Positions 2,397 through 16,250 of a stretch of DNA of 26,606 bases are shown piece by piece. Within the stretch, counting starts at the first letter, position 1; every line of letters begins with the position of its first letter. The notes under the pieces were generated by a model, which did not search any database, was not told the DNA's origin, and worked only from the letters and a program-made list of their open reading frames with translations. The position numbers and the translations under genes were made by a program. The DNA comes from a virus: the IMG/VR virus record IMGVR_UViG_3300035208_006812, one strand, 5' to 3'.

Positions 2397-3566
2397 ATGA
2401 TAAGATTTTATGACTACTCAGCAAGAATACAGAAGCTCACAGGGGAGGTTTATTATCCTCCTGTAGTTTCATTTAGTACAGTCGATAACCTGCCATTTCA
2501 GAACTCTCCGGAGGCATCTATAGAGGTCATAGCGAATGAGAATTTATCAGGCATACAAAACATTACCCCAATAGAATTTGATGATATCATAAGGCTGAGC
2601 GTATCTATCAGGTATCATCCGAAGGATGTACCAGTATATGTTAATCTATTTGAGGGAAAAGTTCAGAACATATCTAAAAATTATGGAGAACTGAACACGG
2701 TAACACTTCAATGTGTAGGCCATATTTATGAAGTGTTCGACACTCTGGAAGTATTCGGCCATTCATGGACAAGTACAGTAGACGCAAAAACAATTATATC
2801 AACCCTTATGAGCGAGTCTCATAAGCTCAGCCGGGTAGAGTATGACGCTTCGTATGTTGATTCCGGTGTGACACTTCCAGAATTTAACGTCGAAGCTGAA
2901 AAAATGTTTCTGAATCAGGTACTTTCTAAAATAGAAGAAATATCCGGGTATACAAAATACTTCGATACTGTCCAAATATACGATAGATGGGGCATACTGC
3001 AACATATTTACCTTACATTTAAATCAATATCAGCAGCGGTAACGCATAAATACGAAATTAACGAAGGTTCTAACAGGCTTATTGCTGCCTCGGTTGACTC
3101 CATAGGCGAGGATGTAAAAACCTTTAGGTATGTCGTTGGAGGAACCGACGAGGTAACGGGGACCACATACCACGCCGACGTATCAGACTCGGTGGCAGTT
3201 TCTATACATGGTCCTCGTTATGCTCTTGATACCTACTCGTGGATCATGTCAAACTCATTATGTACTCAGGTAGCACAGGGTTTACTAGATGGTTCAAAAG
3301 ATCCATATGTCTCTATATCATGCACTTTAGAGGGAACACCAGACGCGCACAAGGGAGACCTTGTTAAAGTTGATTTTCACACACTGGATTTAAAGGGAGT
3401 TGCAGTATCCGGGAATTACCGCGTCGCAAAGGTGCAGCATCGTTTATCTGAAACAGGAGCTTATACAACTCAGTTAGACCTGAACAGGGTAAAAATGACT
3501 CCAACGGAATATACGATAAAGTACATTTCACAGAAATTAAATACTGTATTGACAAACCAGGCATAA
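2397..3566 (+). CDS. Baseplate hub / Tal-like tail protein (gp27/GPD-like fold)
   Basis: 389 aa, RBS GAGGT. Motifs LFEGKVQNISK...VTLQCVG, DSVAVSIHGPR, VSISCTLEGTPDAHKGDLVKV and GNYRVAKVQHRLSETGAYTTQLDL are typical of hub proteins. Follows the Dit-like gene. Confidence 0.75.
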   Translation: MIRFYDYSARIQKLTGEVYYPPVVSFSTVDNLPFQNSPEASIEVIANENLSGIQNITPIEFDDIIRLSVSIRYHPKDVPVYVNLFEGKVQNISKNYGELNTVTLQCVGHIYEVFDTLEVFGHSWTSTVDAKTIISTLMSESHKLSRVEYDASYVDSGVTLPEFNVEAEKMFLNQVLSKIEEISGYTKYFDTVQIYDRWGILQHIYLTFKSISAAVTHKYEINEGSNRLIAASVDSIGEDVKTFRYVVGGTDEVTGTTYHADVSDSVAVSIHGPRYALDTYSWIMSNSLCTQVAQGLLDGSKDPYVSISCTLEGTPDAHKGDLVKVDFHTLDLKGVAVSGNYRVAKVQHRLSETGAYTTQLDLNRVKMTPTEYTIKYISQKLNTVLTNQA

Positions 3567-3567
3567 C

Positions 3568-3662
3568 ACAAAAAGGAAAGAAAAGTTGCTGCAGTCACTC
3601 GAAGGATAGTACAAAAAGGAAATTATAGGTATTTTCTATATTTTATAAGAAGGTACCTATAA
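3568..3662. terminator. Bidirectional terminator region between converging tail and minus-strand operons
   Basis: ACAAAAAGGAAA twice (3568-3579, 3611-3622; T-tracts on the minus strand) and a 9-bp inverted repeat TTATAGGTA (3623-3631)/TACCTATAA (3654-3662). Confidence 0.5.
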
Positions 3663-3740
3663 TACAAGTATGCAATTGGATCATGTAACCAAAAAACTAC
3701 TTTTTCTTGAAAGGTCCAGGAGCTGTAATTTAATAAGTTT

Positions 3741-4001
3741 TTATGGTCTTGCAAGCTTCACATCCTCCACAGGTACCCATAGATCAGACTCGATATTAAC
3801 AAATCTTACCCGGATATGTTTTATAGGGTTCTTATTGACGGTTAGGGTCATAGGCTTTGAAATAATCATCACATAAGTTTCTTCCAGGGAATCAAGGTGA
3901 TTTTCTTTTACAAACTCCTCTCTTATATTCATAATTACGCCAGGGCTAAAAGAGGACAACCGCGACACGTTGAACGATACATATTTTTTAGCTTTGCTCA
4001 T
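3741..4001 (-). CDS. Hypothetical protein, 86 aa, possible SH3/KOW-like beta-barrel
   Basis: RBS GGTGA 4 nt upstream; last gene of a tightly packed operon; HIRVRFVNIESDLWVPVEDVKL is SH3-like. Confidence 0.6.
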   Translation of the reverse strand: MSKAKKYVSFNVSRLSSFSPGVIMNIREEFVKENHLDSLEETYVMIISKPMTLTVNKNPIKHIRVRFVNIESDLWVPVEDVKLARP

Positions 4002-4005
4002 ATAC

Positions 4006-4263
4006 TCACCTAAACTTTTTATTGGCTTCTGCTTTAGTTTTTATCCGGTCTAATGTATCCCACCAGGATACCGGCAATAACTCCAACTCTTTAAAGATGT
4101 CAATTTCCGGGCTATCATCCGCCCTGATGCTGTCATTTATGCCTTTCTGAGACACAGGCAACCATTTATTTTTATCCTCATTGAAATCTATTTCAATCCA
4201 TAAATGAGATAAGGGAGGTAAAAATACCTCGGGTTTATCTCTTTCTGGCTGGTATTCGTTCAT
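4006..4263 (-). CDS. Hypothetical protein, 85 aa
   Basis: TGATG stop/start overlap with the upstream gene. Confidence 0.65.
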   Translation of the reverse strand: MNEYQPERDKPEVFLPPLSHLWIEIDFNEDKNKWLPVSQKGINDSIRADDSPEIDIFKELELLPVSWWDTLDRIKTKAEANKKFR

Positions 4264-4997
4264 CAGATCGCTATTTCAAATGTTCGTCCGGCTTTCTTTT
4301 GGACCTCAGCAATTTCTTTACGGGCAGCTACCAGGGCGTTACCTGCTGCTTTCATAGTGGATATAATCCACTTGAGGTCTGAGCCGTCAAACAAGGAAGA
4401 ACCGATAACAAGCCACTTTGTACGAAGGTTTGTACGTATGCAAAGTTCTTTTCCATTATCCGGGGACCTCTTGACAGTATAGAAGGCTACATTTCCATAT
4501 CTGTAAATGTCCGGGAGCTCTTCGAAAGGCAATACATTATGTACTGATTTAACCCTGAACAGCAGGTTACTTTCATGAGGGACCATTTCAAAAGTAATCT
4601 TACATACCGAATGATCATTTGATAACTGATTTCTCAGTTCTGCATTCCTTGAGAGCCCTTTAGGACCGCATGAATCGGCAGATACGACGGAGCCAGGTGA
4701 ACCAGTTGATTTACTTTTATCTTTTGCTGTAGCTTCTCTGAGTGGTCCGAGCGGTGACACGGTGAGATACTTGTCCATGAGTTCTAAAGTCTCATCCGCC
4801 AGGACCGGAACAAACATAACCTTTGGTGAAGGGTTTAAAGCTACATTAACCTGAGAGCCTTCGAGTTTGCTCACGAAATCCCGAGCCTGCTTTACCATTT
4901 CATCAAATGGGTTATTTTCCTCTAATGTAACCTGTCCGGTTAAAAGTTTGTTGTTGTTCTCAAGAAGTTCTTTAATGATTGTGTCTATACCATTCAT
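4263..4997 (-). CDS. Hypothetical protein, 244 aa
   Basis: Long ORF coupled to the downstream gene; no motif recognised. Confidence 0.7.
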   Translation of the reverse strand: MNGIDTIIKELLENNNKLLTGQVTLEENNPFDEMVKQARDFVSKLEGSQVNVALNPSPKVMFVPVLADETLELMDKYLTVSPLGPLREATAKDKSKSTGSPGSVVSADSCGPKGLSRNAELRNQLSNDHSVCKITFEMVPHESNLLFRVKSVHNVLPFEELPDIYRYGNVAFYTVKRSPDNGKELCIRTNLRTKWLVIGSSLFDGSDLKWIISTMKAAGNALVAARKEIAEVQKKAGRTFEIAI

Positions 4998-5057
4998 ATA
5001 TTATCATATCCTCGATTTTTTGTTTATTTCAGTTGATTTTCTGTTATTTTTCATCAA

Positions 5058-5711
5058 TTAATTGAAGTTTTTAACTAAAAACTCTTGTATTTTGCAATGT
5101 TCTGTTTTTATGCCATTGCCTGAAGAAATAAGTTTAGAGACATAAAGCTCATTTTTACTTATTACCTCTGGCGGGATAGTGTCCAGGAAGTCTATAAACT
5201 CCCTCTCAGTACTGCATCTACGTACACTAACATCGAGGCAGTTAAGGGACCAGCTTTTACTAATCGGCTTGTAATACTGCCAATACTTAGACATTCCGGA
5301 ATTACCGGGCACTGGATCATGTGTTTTTTGTCTGCTCAGTGCGTACCTTATTTCGTGTTTAACCTTCGGTCTTTGAAGCTTAATAGCGTTTTGGGTAGTA
5401 TCAAGACTGCTTTTACAATAGGAATACATCCTATTGAACAACTCATCCGGAGTATGTAAACTTCCGCTGTCCTGCCCATCCGGTGTATATATTTCGATGC
5501 TGTCAACTATGCAAGAATCGCTTATAACATAAGATTCTGAAAACATAGCTACGAAATACTTTTCGAAATTCTCAACGGGCTTTATAAACCAGTCAAAGAA
5601 CTTGAACTTTCTTAAATTAAGTTCACCATCGGGCTGAATCAATACTATCTGAAGGATAGTTAAATTAGATCCGTCGGACGGTGGTTTTATTATTCCTTTG
5701 TATCGGTCCAT
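5058..5711 (-). CDS. Hypothetical protein, 217 aa
   Basis: Strong RBS AAGGTGAT upstream of the ATG; first gene on the left arm of a divergent promoter. Confidence 0.7.
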   Translation of the reverse strand: MDRYKGIIKPPSDGSNLTILQIVLIQPDGELNLRKFKFFDWFIKPVENFEKYFVAMFSESYVISDSCIVDSIEIYTPDGQDSGSLHTPDELFNRMYSYCKSSLDTTQNAIKLQRPKVKHEIRYALSRQKTHDPVPGNSGMSKYWQYYKPISKSWSLNCLDVSVRRCSTEREFIDFLDTIPPEVISKNELYVSKLISSGNGIKTEHCKIQEFLVKNFN

Positions 5712-5754
5712 GATATCACCTTTTAATACTACAAATACCTATTAAGTATACATG

Positions 5755-5791
5755 TATATATACCTTATCATCAGATGATTAAGTATATATA
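5755..5791. promoter_or_regulatory. Symmetric divergent promoter: two TATA boxes around a central palindromic operator
   Basis: TATATATA-CCTT-ATCATC-A-GATGAT-TAAG-TATATATA; arms match at 16/18 positions around centre 5773; lies between divergent genes starting at 5711 and 5825. Confidence 0.75.
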
Positions 5792-5824
5792 GGTCTGGTT
5801 CTATTGTTATTATGGTGAATACCT

Positions 5825-5947
5825 ATGCAGAATTTGAAGAAAATCACTATAGGCAAATATGCCTTTGAAATGCCGACAGAATCAATAACAGGCTGGCTTA
5901 TTTTCGGGCTGGCTGCATTGGGTCTAGGATGTTTCATTTTATCATGA
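5825..5947 (+). CDS. Small membrane protein, 40 aa (not in ORF track)
   Basis: MQNLKKITIGKYAFEMPTESITGWLIFGLAALGLGCFILS; RBS GGTGA; one C-terminal hydrophobic helix; ends 6 nt before the next gene. Confidence 0.65.
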   Translation: MQNLKKITIGKYAFEMPTESITGWLIFGLAALGLGCFILS

Positions 5948-5953
5948 GGTACT

Positions 5954-6244
5954 ATGACCACGAACAGCTATAACGATACCCTGAATATAATTTTCGGGGA
6001 TAACCGACGGGTAAACATCTTGCGTTTACTTTATGAAATGAGTACGCAGGGAGACCCAATATATATAAGAAAAATAGTTACGAGGACGGGATACACTCCC
6101 CAGACAGTTACAAATCATATAAACGAGCTTGAAAAGTATGGAGTGATAAAACGAACACAGCGCGAAGGTTCGCCGACAAAATACATAGACCTCAATGAAA
6201 ATGTTGAGGGCGTGATAGATCTTATTCAAGGTTTGAAACTATGA
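5954..6244 (+). CDS. Winged helix-turn-helix transcriptional regulator (ArsR-like)
   Basis: RRVNILRLL...IRKIVTRTGYTPQTVTNHINELEKYGVIKR matches the wHTH pattern; RBS GAGGT. Confidence 0.85.
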   Translation: MTTNSYNDTLNIIFGDNRRVNILRLLYEMSTQGDPIYIRKIVTRTGYTPQTVTNHINELEKYGVIKRTQREGSPTKYIDLNENVEGVIDLIQGLKL

Positions 6245-7578
6245 TCGACTGTTCAGGCATCTCCACAGCTTCACAACTTCAAAAGTACTTTGATAAATAC
6301 GGAGCTGAAACATATCAATTTAGTAAGAATCAAAAGATTGCTGTAGATACTCGGATGAATATAAACGGGGCGTATAACCTAAAGGGGTTTTCTGCATATG
6401 CAGATATGCCCATTTTCAAGTTAAACCCGAGAGTATCCGAAAAAGACTTCGGTATACAGGAAGCAATTATAACCATCAATGGGGCAGGACCTTCTATAGA
6501 AGGTATCCGCTTTGATGGGAATGACGTAAACCAACTATTTGAAAGAGGAGATGGTTACCACAACTTCATAAAACTATACAAGACTACAGGCTTCAGAGCA
6601 GACCGGTTATATGTCGAGAACTCACTCGGGGATGGAATCCGGGCACAGTTTGCGGATGATACCGAAATATCAAGAATGGGAGTTCATCAATGTGGGCATG
6701 ATGGAATATACTTGCAGGAATCTAAAAATGTAATTGTTTCGGGATGTGTGTTTCATATCCGGACCAATTGTGCTACAAGGTTCAGAGCTTGTGAGAATGC
6801 CCAATTTTATAATAATTGGGTTGAAAATCAAATCCATACAGGCATAAGCACAGGGCCAGGTCTCCAACTTGAGAATTCAACAACCTCGACAACTGCAAAA
6901 GATTACAGCATATTTAACAACTACTTCAAAAACACTGATGGTCCGGGAATATGGGCTATTAATACATATGCTGCAAGTCCGGACGCTGCAACAGGCTTGA
7001 ACATCTACCAAAACACGTTTGAGAATTGCGGCCAGGGAGGGCACTATAAGAATGTCACAAGTACAGGCGGTATTTGTGTCGATGGTTGGAAGGCAGGAAT
7101 CTATCAAAACCTTTTCACGGGTTGCAGCTCTGGCGTGACTATAGGTCCTTGGGTTTCAATAACTCCGGCTGGTTCCGGGTATCAAGTAACAGTTAAAAAT
7201 AATATGTTTGCTCACTGTGCAGCAGGCAAGCAGGTCTATTCATCGGCTGGTACAGGCATAGACAAAACTTCTAAAGTTAATACAAAAGTTTCATGTTCTG
7301 AAAATTGGTTCTATGAAAATAAAAATGACTATTTCGGGACGGGAGAGACGACACAGATAAACCCATACCTAACGCTAAATAATCATCTATATGTAATAGG
7401 TGATAAATCAAGCGTCGAGGGAAGGGGTATAGGCGCAAAAGATGTAAACAACACATATGAGTCAACTGGTGTTGAAAAGGTCGAAATTAGAATATCAAAG
7501 ATTCTGAAGGTAAGATACTCGGATAAATACCCGAATGTTCTTCCTGAAGGTGTGATAATATGGAAGCGTAAATCATGA
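6241..7578 (+). CDS. Right-handed parallel beta-helix protein resembling the Methanosarcina disaggregatase family; putative polysaccharide-degrading enzyme
   Basis: Repeated N-x-F/I-x-N-N beta-helix rungs. Ordered motifs FDGN, GDGYHN, GDG, GHDG, RTN, GPGLQLE, NTDGPGIW, GGI match those I recall from Methanosarcina disaggregatase-related proteins. ATGA overlap with the wHTH gene. Confidence 0.75.
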   Translation: MIDCSGISTASQLQKYFDKYGAETYQFSKNQKIAVDTRMNINGAYNLKGFSAYADMPIFKLNPRVSEKDFGIQEAIITINGAGPSIEGIRFDGNDVNQLFERGDGYHNFIKLYKTTGFRADRLYVENSLGDGIRAQFADDTEISRMGVHQCGHDGIYLQESKNVIVSGCVFHIRTNCATRFRACENAQFYNNWVENQIHTGISTGPGLQLENSTTSTTAKDYSIFNNYFKNTDGPGIWAINTYAASPDAATGLNIYQNTFENCGQGGHYKNVTSTGGICVDGWKAGIYQNLFTGCSSGVTIGPWVSITPAGSGYQVTVKNNMFAHCAAGKQVYSSAGTGIDKTSKVNTKVSCSENWFYENKNDYFGTGETTQINPYLTLNNHLYVIGDKSSVEGRGIGAKDVNNTYESTGVEKVEIRISKILKVRYSDKYPNVLPEGVIIWKRKS

Positions 7579-8144
7579 ACGAAGAGAAAACATATAGTTC
7601 TGACCCAAAATATGTATTCACAACTAAATACAGTGATTTTGAGCTAGATACTAATAGACATCCAGAAGCTACGGTTACCTTACCGGCAAAAGACGGTTAC
7701 GACCTTAAATTGTTAGAACTGACTGTAAATATGTGTACTCAGTCAATAGGTAATACTGCATATTGTACATATCTTTTAAAAATCGATGGTGCAATATTTA
7801 ACCCCAATTTAACACTAAAGACTACCTCAACTGGATACACTCCGATAAAAGCTTCAATTAGTAAGCAGATCAGGACCTCAAATGATGTAACCTTTTATTT
7901 ACATCTCAAAACCTCAAACTCTGCTTCTAAAGCTATGGTAAAAAACTTTCAGATAAAATACAAATATGTAGCAAAAACCGTAAACGTGGCACCAGTCACA
8001 CCAGAACAGGACACAAGCGAGGCGGAAAATTTGGAATATATATTATATATTTCCGGATCAGAAACGGATGTGGAAGCGGCAATTTCTGAACTTAAAAAAG
8101 AGTTTGGAGATAAAGCCACAGTGGAAACATATTCAAAAAAGTGA
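7575..8144 (+). CDS. Beta-sandwich protein homologous to the repeated domain in the tail protein; putative glycan-binding module
   Basis: TVTLPAKDG..L..L....TQSIGNTAYC and TTSTGY...VTFYLHLKTSNSASKAMVKN align with repeats in ORF 30-2387. ATGA overlap with the beta-helix gene. Confidence 0.7.
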   Translation: MNEEKTYSSDPKYVFTTKYSDFELDTNRHPEATVTLPAKDGYDLKLLELTVNMCTQSIGNTAYCTYLLKIDGAIFNPNLTLKTTSTGYTPIKASISKQIRTSNDVTFYLHLKTSNSASKAMVKNFQIKYKYVAKTVNVAPVTPEQDTSEAENLEYILYISGSETDVEAAISELKKEFGDKATVETYSKK

Positions 8145-8148
8145 TTCA

Positions 8149-8394
8149 ATGGCAAAGGACAGGTACAAATTTAAAAGGGATAAATCAAATATGGCTCCGG
8201 GTTGTAACGTGCCCGGATACAAGCCAAAAAGGAATAAAAAACGGAGCAAGACCAATATAAACACAGAAAAGGTGAAATATATAACTCCAATCTGTCCCTT
8301 GGGTGGTAAATGTATTCAACCCCCAGGAGAGGACGGTTATAACCCTGCAAACTGTAAGAAATGCTCTAAGATGATCGAGGGTTTATCATGGTAA
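8149..8394 (+). CDS. Basic protein with C-terminal Cys cluster (putative Zn finger), 81 aa
   Basis: Start moved to the ATG at 8149, 4 nt after the upstream stop; CPLGGKC...NCKKC; Lys/Arg-rich. Confidence 0.6.
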   Translation: MAKDRYKFKRDKSNMAPGCNVPGYKPKRNKKRSKTNINTEKVKYITPICPLGGKCIQPPGEDGYNPANCKKCSKMIEGLSW

Positions 8395-15944: not shown

Positions 15945-16250
15945 ATGGAAGTAAAATTAACCGAGCAGAGTATTATAAATATCATATCTATGGCGGGCTT
16001 TATAGCGTGTGTTATCGCCTTTATTATAAAGGGGTCTCTAACTCCGGAGTATGTGTTACCCTTGTTCCTGACCTATGTATTACCGTCGCCAATAAGTGAC
16101 AGGATGAAGAACACAAAGATATCAAAAAACACATCAGAAGCCTCTACAGCTTCAGGAGTTAACCAGGTAACAACCAACAATAATGAAGTTGAAATCGAAA
16201 GCGGAGTAATTGAAATTACCGACGGCTCTTTTGAGGGAAAGGCAGAATAA
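15945..16250 (+). CDS. Small membrane protein with two N-terminal hydrophobic segments, holin-like topology
   Basis: IINIISMAGFIACVIAFII and YVLPLFLTYVLP followed by a hydrophilic tail; own TATA-like box near 15899-15907. Confidence 0.55.
   Translation: MEVKLTEQSIINIISMAGFIACVIAFIIKGSLTPEYVLPLFLTYVLPSPISDRMKNTKISKNTSEASTASGVNQVTTNNNEVEIESGVIEITDGSFEGKAE

Follow-up and report, generated by a model that had tools for sequence, protein, structure and literature searches.

We analyzed a stretch of viral DNA of 26,606 nucleotides (IMG/VR virus record IMGVR_UViG_3300035208_006812), here called the window, with attention to the gene at positions 6241–7578 and the operon to which it belongs. The gene encodes a protein of 445 amino acids (aa) that is assigned at the family level to the beta-helix proteins of the disaggregatase (Dag) family. 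Disaggregatase dissolves methanochondroitin, the sugar matrix that holds Methanosarcina cells together. The window contains a TerS-like helix-turn-helix protein, the terminase TerL (PF04466, 1e-36), a portal-sized gene, a Mu-F-like head protein, an HK97-type capsid candidate and tail proteins, and therefore belongs to a tailed virus. The features of the enzyme gene are as follows.

6241–7578, plus strand: Dag-family beta-helix enzyme, 445 aa, assigned from family, fold and signature residues
6241–7410, plus strand: N-cap helix and right-handed beta-helix, aa 1 to about 390, in the AlphaFold2 model
6631–6633, plus strand: candidate catalytic residue D131, from the family alignment
6697–6702, plus strand: candidate catalytic residues H153/D154, from the family alignment
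7462–7575, plus strand: aa 408–445, disordered linker and short conserved C-terminal tail, from the model

The reading frame at 6241–7578 is a real gene and not a chance open reading frame (ORF), because it matches Pfam families (Beta_helix, 1.2e-12, aa 77–243; also NosD), has homologues in 12 clusters at 27–99% identity, and shows a low dN (0.11) with saturated dS when compared with its orthologue at locus L001. Its ATG overlaps the stop codon of the upstream winged helix-turn-helix (wHTH) gene as ATGA. The original prediction, made from the letters of the DNA, had listed a series of motifs, and all were found at exactly the residues named: FDGN (aa 91), GDGYHN (103), GDG (130), GHDG (152), RTN (174), GPGLQLE (205), NTDGPGIW (231) and GGI (276). 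The claim that the protein has no hydrophobic signal peptide also held. The highest 19-residue Kyte-Doolittle mean is 0.88, and there is no transmembrane (TM) segment either. The gene was said to lie outside the structural operons, which is correct for the window virus: it stands 2.7 kb beyond the last tail gene and about 6.5 kb ahead of the terminase genes, and is preceded by a divergent promoter. A location in the tail module was found in the distant relatives L016 and L022, not in the window virus.

RNA data sets gave little signal for this gene. In the sludge metatranscriptome run X19, which was chosen with this gene region, one contig of 228 nt lies inside the beta-helix gene (6405–6631, depth 2.2); it was the only piece recovered of 20 kb of virus and is at most a hint of expression of the enzyme gene. 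The RNA-labelled runs X13 and X16 gave even cover and behaved like DNA, and raw-read run X21 contained no virus sequence.

We scanned the protein with the Pfam profile Disaggr_assoc (PF08480), which the original prediction had proposed as a check of Dag affinity. The match scored 42.3 bits against a gathering cut-off of 22.6 (E 1e-10), with aa 221–408 aligned to profile positions 3–188 of 194. An exhaustive phmmer search gave 233 relatives of the enzyme (E<1e-3), and PF08480 was present in all eight of the top relatives that were scanned. One relative, P0038, combines PF08480 with Disaggr_repeat, which is the architecture of cellular Dag. Disaggr_repeat (DNRLRE, PF06848) had no match in the 445-aa enzyme or in the partner protein described below. 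The family assignment refers to the PF08480 profile and to the domains of the relatives, and the window enzyme scores 42 bits with PF08480 compared with 140–370 bits for cellular proteins. We looked at whether the best hits were generic pectate-lyase or tail-spike helices without Dag affinity, and they were not. A generic pectate-lyase look-alike was rejected because of the PF08480 match, the PF08480 domains of the relatives and the invariant motif residues.

A signature alignment was made of 160 domains from 158 representatives, with 66 domains from signal-peptide proteins and 94 from signal-less proteins. The near-invariant residues are D131, G152-H153-D/E154, R174-x-N176, R180, Q/E209, N227, G-P-G-x-W238, G264 and G-G-I276-278. 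The window enzyme keeps all of them, and their invariance is the same in secreted and signal-less members. The motif series listed in the original prediction is a true family signature in these 160 domains and is intact in the window enzyme. An N-terminal signal-like segment is found in 63 of the 158 representatives and is missing from the window enzyme. The difference between the signal-less virus enzyme and its signal-bearing relatives parallels that between endolysin and autolysin.

An AlphaFold2 model of the enzyme, with 12 homologues as input, gave a predicted local distance difference test (pLDDT) of 82 and a predicted TM-score (pTM) of 0.85. The model is one continuous right-handed beta-helix with a cap helix at aa 10–20 and coils from about aa 24 to about aa 390. 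A Foldseek search with this model returned mixed matches (PL6 lyases, RbmB, GH28 enzymes, tailspikes and many BFVD tailspikes), and such a search alone is not discriminating for the enzyme. After re-alignment, the top matches were the A-modules of two mannuronan C-5 epimerases, AlgE6 (Z 36.8, root-mean-square deviation 2.4 Å over 330 residues) and AlgE4 (Z 36.0, 2.1 Å over 324 residues). The next-best match had a Z of about 32, i.e. about 4 Z below AlgE6 and AlgE4. Tailspike proteins (TSPs) matched with Z values of 32.3 (Dettilon TSP), 31.3 (phi29 gp12), 30.1 (CBA120 TSP3) and 29.6 (Sf6), and the adhesin PfbA with 29.7. The structure prediction and fold comparison that had been suggested to check the beta-helix thus gave a right-handed beta-helix closest to the AlgE4 and AlgE6 A-modules. 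AlgE6 and AlgE4 were also the only significant relatives when the viral-family profile was compared with PDB sequences (E 7.5e-6 and 1.2e-4, respectively); single-sequence phmmer of the enzyme against the same sequences gave no match.

In the HMMER alignment, the invariant coils SLGDGxR and CGHDG correspond to two catalytic coils of AlgE4, YGFDPHE and NGLDGF. This coil alignment would place the conserved acids and the histidine in the canonical groove of a uronate-polymer enzyme. The catalytic motif of AlgE-type C-5 epimerases, YG(F/I)DPH(D/E), is absent, and the coil reads SLGDGIR in the viral family. Because the catalytic residues differ from those of AlgE4, the chemistry is probably glycosidic cleavage rather than epimerization. 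The AlgE-type alignment covers model residues 1–376, and a separate N-terminal particle-binding domain is not present.

The gene that directly follows encodes a partner protein with the following features.

7575–8144, plus strand: partner, 189 aa, lectin- or carbohydrate-binding module (CBM)-like, with an ATGA overlap with the enzyme stop codon
7575–7973, plus strand: jelly-roll beta-sandwich of the partner, aa 1–133, in the AlphaFold2 model, then a disordered acidic linker
8034–8141, plus strand: C-terminal strand-helix module of the partner, aa ~154–189, in the AlphaFold2 model

As read from the sequence, the enzyme and partner genes are translationally coupled. The AlphaFold2 model of the partner has a pLDDT of 84. 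Its fold matches were the Pgp3 C-domain (Z 10.9), the TNF-like lectin PLTL (Z 9.9) and CBM36 (Z 9.8), and further phage fibre tips, the lambda tail tip, the cyanophage A-1(L) fibre CBD and Bdellovibrio Bd1399. PHROGs contained no family for either enzyme or partner. A complex prediction with both full-length proteins and their own alignments scored 0.11 against a mark of 0.32, which is no evidence either way.

The enzyme–partner pair was found in six lineages, down to about 30% enzyme identity. The two genes stand in the same order in L001, L002–L006 and L014. The pair is also kept in L018, where the enzyme is about 30% identical, the partner has a pairwise E of 6e-5 and the pair adjoins an integrase; in L023 the partner is kept beside the enzyme (E 4.6e-16). 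Fused forms were found by a local hidden Markov model (HMM) scan of the beta-helix relatives. P0111 (569 aa, signal-less, with the same N-cap) consists of a beta-helix (E 9e-87), a Ser/Thr linker and a partner-type jelly-roll (E 6.8e-12), and P0105, P0138 and P0091 carry one or two partner-type jelly-rolls behind a beta-helix. A word-index search had not turned up any longer proteins that contain the partner domain. In L015, the enzyme is followed by a gene for a Disaggr_repeat protein (1e-17), which takes the place of the partner. The fused P0111, the split pairs and the swap in L015 together indicate that a binding-type module consistently accompanies the catalytic unit, be it in the same protein, as a separate partner or as a replacement of that partner.

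In many signal-less relatives, the C-terminus consists of an acidic or Pro-rich linker and then a module of ~30 aa, laid out as a hydrophobic strand (often xC[ST]), a helix and ...[YF][RK][RK]. An HMM of the beta-helix tails had its best match outside beta-helix proteins in the C-terminus of the L018 partner (E 5.5e-4 among 703 ORFs), with the next match at 0.83. Profile-profile comparison of enzyme tails and partner tails was collinear (P 0.008). The tag is present in 17 of 95 signal-less representatives and in none of 63 signal-bearing ones (Fisher P 1e-4), and neither the fused P0111 nor the tail-module homologues P0012 and P0019 have it. With the tail HMM, which describes the tails of distant beta-helix proteins, neither the enzyme tail nor the partner tail of the window was detected, as both are too diverged. 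The two window tails share the tag layout, and for the window virus this layout is what the tag idea draws on. It is a doubtful proposal that the matching ~30-aa tags of enzyme and partner would support a non-covalent, dockerin-like assembly into a two-component "exolysin", and that they would be dispensable when the two are fused as in P0111.

The enzyme and partner genes lie at the right end of a variable block. Its left edge and the gene further to the left are described by two features.

2397–3566, plus strand: distal tail protein, 389 aa, matching PHROG tail proteins (1e-6), left block edge, dS 1.7 compared with L001
3–2387, plus strand: C-terminal 794 aa of a giant tail protein (~1870 aa), whose N-terminal part lies beyond the window

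Compared with L001, the flanking genes are 96–100% identical (TerL 99%, p81 100%), whereas the genes in the block 2397–8144 are only 40–92% identical (enzyme 83%, partner 81%, wHTH 85%, the small membrane protein TM40 75%, the leftward gene 40%). The dS is high to saturated in the block and 0.02–0.4 in the flanking genes, and dN/dS in the block, wherever it could be calculated, is low. On the right, the block ends precisely at the stop codon of the partner gene. On these sequence comparisons, the stretch that begins with the distal tail gene and ends with the partner is a host-interaction cassette that is exchanged between viruses and is under purifying selection. In a 96%-identical orthologue of the giant tail protein, a second PF08480 domain (aa 275–431) occurs together with Laminin_G_3. 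Recent paralogy of the 445-aa enzyme and this giant-tail Dag domain was rejected, since their similarity is only remote (BLAST E 0.02–0.1).

The head of the enzyme operon contains a promoter and two small genes.

5755–5800, no strand: divergent promoter/operator, palindrome ATCATC-A-GATGAT overlapping ATGATTAA, then a TATA-like box GTATATATAGG
5825–5947, plus strand: TM40, a 40-aa tail-anchored single-pass membrane protein, first gene of the operon, holin-like candidate
5954–6244, plus strand: MarR-type winged-helix regulator, 96 aa (Pfam MarR 1.3e-6, MarR_2, HTH_24)

About 30 nt separate the box GTATATATAGG from the first start codon (ATG) of the rightward operon. L001, L002 and L014 have the element GATGAT(T/A)A...TATATA ahead of the operon as well; GATGATTAA and a TATA element are thus conserved there. 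The word ATGATTAA occurs nine times in the window compared with 2.5 expected, and seven of the nine copies are in promoter regions (5775, 9770, 20038, 20074, 23449, 23485 and 23494, one of which precedes the head operon; the others are at 873 and 10539). It may be a shared regulator site that links the enzyme operon, the antisense cassette and the head operon. TM40 has a hydrophobic C-terminal segment (19-residue Kyte-Doolittle mean 2.16). Its ORF is kept in L001 (75% identity, E 2e-18) and in L002 and L005 (40%, E 4e-8), with an equivalent ORF in L014, and its dN/dS compared with L001 is 0.12. The wHTH gene has the same position in L001–L006 and L014. TM40 and the wHTH regulator head the enzyme operon, which continues into nuclease-type genes. 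TM40 lies two genes upstream of the enzyme in the same operon, and as a holin-like neighbor its function is only a candidate one.

Other small proteins were seen in the window and near related genes. Directly after the partner, positions 8149–8394 encode an 81-aa basic, Cys-rich, zinc-ribbon-like protein that is 100% identical in L001. Between the TerL and portal genes, positions 15945–16250 encode a protein of 101 aa with an N-terminal TM segment, whose position is kept in L001 and L002. The antisense cassette at 19.5–21.5 kb contains further small membrane proteins. Proteins with DUF1699 (PF08004/PF28505) were found within a few kb of a signal-less Dag-like gene in three loci (L017:6100–6513, L022:9385–9789 and L023:5458–5868).

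We compared the virus with 50,697 deposited phage genomes. Capsid and portal matched only two viruses, both of methanogens and both from one methanogenic alkane-degrading enrichment. Caudoviricetes sp. vir524 is the nearest deposited virus, with 46.5% identity in the major capsid protein (MCP), 30.5% in the portal and Methanomicrobiales in its host field; Caudoviricetes sp. vir525 has Methanosarcinales. A tblastn search of the 445-aa enzyme against the same genomes gave no match, and megablast of the window gave none. The TerL is similar only to distant bacterial-phage TerLs and carries no host signal. No tRNA genes were found in the window, and no integrase or repressor was recognized among its proteins. 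The DNA of the virus was seen again in metagenomes of 11 studies, which come from landfill, groundwater, manure, hydrocarbon and wastewater.

A methanogen host is well supported. The GC content of the window virus is 40%, compared with 58% for vir524 and 53% for vir525, and Methanosarcina genomes have a GC content of about 39–43%. PF08480 is absent from vir524 and vir525, whereas the window virus has two genes with it, the second as read from the giant-tail-protein orthologue. Among 14 control genomes, PF08480 was detected in Methanosarcina acetivorans only, and the nearest protein-atlas clusters are "disaggregatase-related" proteins that are 99–100% archaeal. Methanosarcina is probably the host, which is a reasonable inference from the 40% GC and the Dag domains and not a result.

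We tentatively favor a reading in which the enzyme and its partner act as a soluble two-component matrix depolymerase released at lysis, and we would put this at nearly, but not quite, an even chance. The signal-less, catalytically intact Dag-family glycanase would work with the co-translated jelly-roll binding subunit as a two-protein depolymerase. Its target would be a uronic-acid-containing heteropolysaccharide outside the host cell, most likely Methanosarcina methanochondroitin. Both proteins would be made in the cytoplasm and reach the matrix only on envelope breach. The matrix around the lysed cell would then dissolve, and virions could leave the aggregate and reach neighboring, matrix-shielded cells. 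The distantly related Dag domain of the giant tail protein would serve entry. We infer the substrate, the enzyme–partner contact, the timing, the soluble state and the host. The coupled partner, the TM40 and wHTH genes in the operon, the giant-tail Dag domain, the cassette exchange and the virion-borne alternative considered below all go beyond the original prediction. Cells inside methanochondroitin aggregates are shielded from virus attack and resist MetSV, and aggregation is a response to MetSV (PMC12369344; PMC13437554).

Neighboring genes in related viruses bear on this reading. Small membrane proteins directly follow the enzyme or the pair in L017, L018 and L023, which fits an exit cassette, and those of L023 and L017 (L023_101 and L017_100) are homologous (E 3e-9). 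These two define a family of ~100 aa with an N-terminal TM segment, located after a Dag-like enzyme in two unrelated viral contigs (L023:8000–8305 and L017:11910–12212), and are holin-like candidates. The C-terminal region of L018:12000–12512 is similar to them.

Several observations weigh against release at lysis or against the host it assumes. No homologue of the holin-like genes of L017, L018 and L023 was found in the window. The enzyme gene is not in a classical lysis position, as it stands behind a regulator at the operon head and is followed by nuclease-type genes. Homologues without the C-terminal tail close the tail modules of L016 and L022. The best non-orthologous match of the window enzyme (E 1e-65) is a 1641-aa protein at L019:10001–14926 with three tandem Beta_helix and PF08480 units, located between Mu-gpT-like capsid genes and a tape-measure-protein (TMP)-like gene. 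The placements in L016, L022 and L019 therefore indicate that virion-borne use of the fold exists in related viruses. On the host side, the closest deposited virus is labelled Methanomicrobiales. In addition, the metagenome-assembled genome (MAG) G001 of a Paceibacterota bacterium of the candidate phyla radiation (CPR) has six strong PF08480 matches of up to 212 bits (loci L007 and L010–L013). The Disaggr_assoc family is not restricted to Methanosarcina, and membership alone does not imply methanochondroitin.

The same evidence can be arranged around entry instead of exit. The enzyme and partner could be virion-borne side-spike and receptor-binding proteins whose short C-terminal modules attach them to the tail or capsid and which help the virus through the matrix on its way in; we consider this somewhat unlikely. 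The beta-helix is equally close to the tailspikes of Dettilon, phi29 (gp12), CBA120 (TSP3) and Sf6, at the Z values given above, and to many in BFVD. The partner resembles fibre tips and receptor-binding domains such as the lambda tail tip, the A-1(L) fibre CBD and Bd1399. The enzyme gene and the distal tail gene have also diverged together within one mosaic block, and the enzyme promoter has the word ATGATTAA in common with the head-operon promoter. Homologues at the end of the tail module in L016 and L022, and the triple unit in the structural module of L019, point the same way. However, the AlgE-type alignment over model residues 1–376 leaves no separate N-terminal anchoring domain, and a divergent promoter and leftward genes separate the tail genes from the enzyme, which shares its transcript with a regulator. 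A Dag domain is already present in the giant tail protein, and the tail-module homologues P0012 and P0019 are exactly those without the C-terminal module. Whichever role applies, host and substrate could be different: the host would be another methanogen or a low-GC anaerobe, and the enzyme would cut S-layer glycan, sheath or extracellular polymeric substance (EPS), not methanochondroitin. We rate this as rather unlikely. The Methanomicrobiales label of vir524, the six copies in the Paceibacterota MAG, the low PF08480 score of the diverged viral clade (42 bits compared with 140–370) and the terminase without host signal speak for it. The higher GC of vir524 and vir525 and their lack of PF08480, compared with 40% GC and two PF08480 genes in the window virus, speak against it, as do the detection in M. 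acetivorans only among the control genomes and the archaeal atlas clusters. L015 moreover pairs the enzyme with a Disaggr_repeat gene, which is the other domain of cellular Dag proteins.

The position immediately behind a dyad-operator switch and a wHTH regulator would also suit host conversion or exclusion, in which a resident (carrier or lysogenic) virus expresses the pair through the adjacent switch and remodels the matrix, either dispersing infected cells or removing receptors against superinfection. The L018 pair adjoins an integrase, the X19 contig at 6405–6631 lies inside the gene (very weak evidence), and a 2026 preprint describes a plasmid-borne Dag-related gene in Methanosarcina for which effects on aggregation are proposed. 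Nevertheless, we regard this as improbable: the enzyme lacks a signal peptide and has no known export route by which it could get from a living cell to the matrix, and neither an integrase nor a repressor was recognized in the window. A non-catalytic beta-helix, acting as a glycan-binding adhesin or a scaffold only, is the least credible explanation and highly improbable. The fold matches do include beta-helix adhesins, for example PfbA, but the family-invariant acidic, basic and histidine residues of the groove coils are all kept, and the gene is under purifying selection.

The predicted depolymerase can be compared with several known systems. M. mazei Dag and cellular "disaggregatase-related" proteins (PF08480 with or without PF06848) belong to the same family and share the beta-helix unit and the signature residues with the viral enzyme, and in both cases an accessory binding-type domain stands beside the catalytic unit. 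The viral enzyme differs in being virus-encoded, in belonging to a diverged clade, and in being a single short unit of 445 aa without signal peptide or Disaggr_repeat; its accessory domain is a jelly-roll protein in its own right, encoded by a translationally coupled gene. The AlgE4 and AlgE6 A-modules superpose with the enzyme over the whole domain, with weak but significant profile similarity and a uronate-polymer groove. In contrast to them, the enzyme has SLGDGIR in place of YG(F/I)DPH(D/E), CGHDG in the next coil, and no RTX R-modules.

Phage tailspikes and capsule depolymerases (Dettilon gp208, CBA120 TSPs, Sf6 TSP, KP32gp38) share the right-handed, glycan-cutting beta-helix fold (Z 29–32). 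As with tailspikes, the predicted role is the crossing of a host polysaccharide layer, and the window gene lies in a mosaic host-interaction block. Unlike them, the enzyme has no N-terminal virion-binding domain, its gene is outside the tail module, and it shares a C-terminal tail module with its partner. Soluble use is at least as likely as tailspike-like use. With endolysin-type cassettes the window has the signal-less enzyme in common, the envelope-degrading class being taken from the family and the activity being predicted.

PeiW, PeiP and PeiR are the only archaeal viral lytic enzymes listed in reviews (PMC10791045; PMC13437554). These enzymes of Methanothermobacter and Methanobrevibacter viruses are likewise signal-less, virus-encoded and directed against a methanogen-specific envelope polymer, as is predicted for the target of the window enzyme. 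They are pseudomurein endoisopeptidases with unrelated fold and chemistry, whereas the window enzyme is a glycanase-type beta-helix. Its putative target is an outer matrix and not a load-bearing wall, so that it would help virions to get out and spread but would not burst the cell. The original prediction knew of no described lysis enzyme of this type for tailed viruses of Methanosarcina, and this agrees with our full-text literature searches, which found no published disaggregatase or methanochondroitin-degrading enzyme of an archaeal virus and no paper tying such degradation to archaeal viruses.

Methanosarcina is the driver of acetoclastic methanogenesis in digesters, landfills and paddy soils. 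To our knowledge, next to nothing has been described of how tailed archaeal viruses enter and leave peptidoglycan-less hosts, and we know of no solved structure for the Dag family. If the proposed exolysin is real, it would be the first egress-and-spread enzyme system described for archaea with an S-layer and a polysaccharide matrix, and its C-terminal tag would be a new protein–protein assembly module. The fused, split and replaced forms of the partner offer a ready-made way into how the enzyme is targeted. The enzyme would be a useful reagent for dispersing Methanosarcina aggregates and would provide a first means to study how enzymes of the Dag family act catalytically. Together with its dedicated partner, this viral Dag-family enzyme is a clonable candidate for how viruses defeat the methanochondroitin shield.

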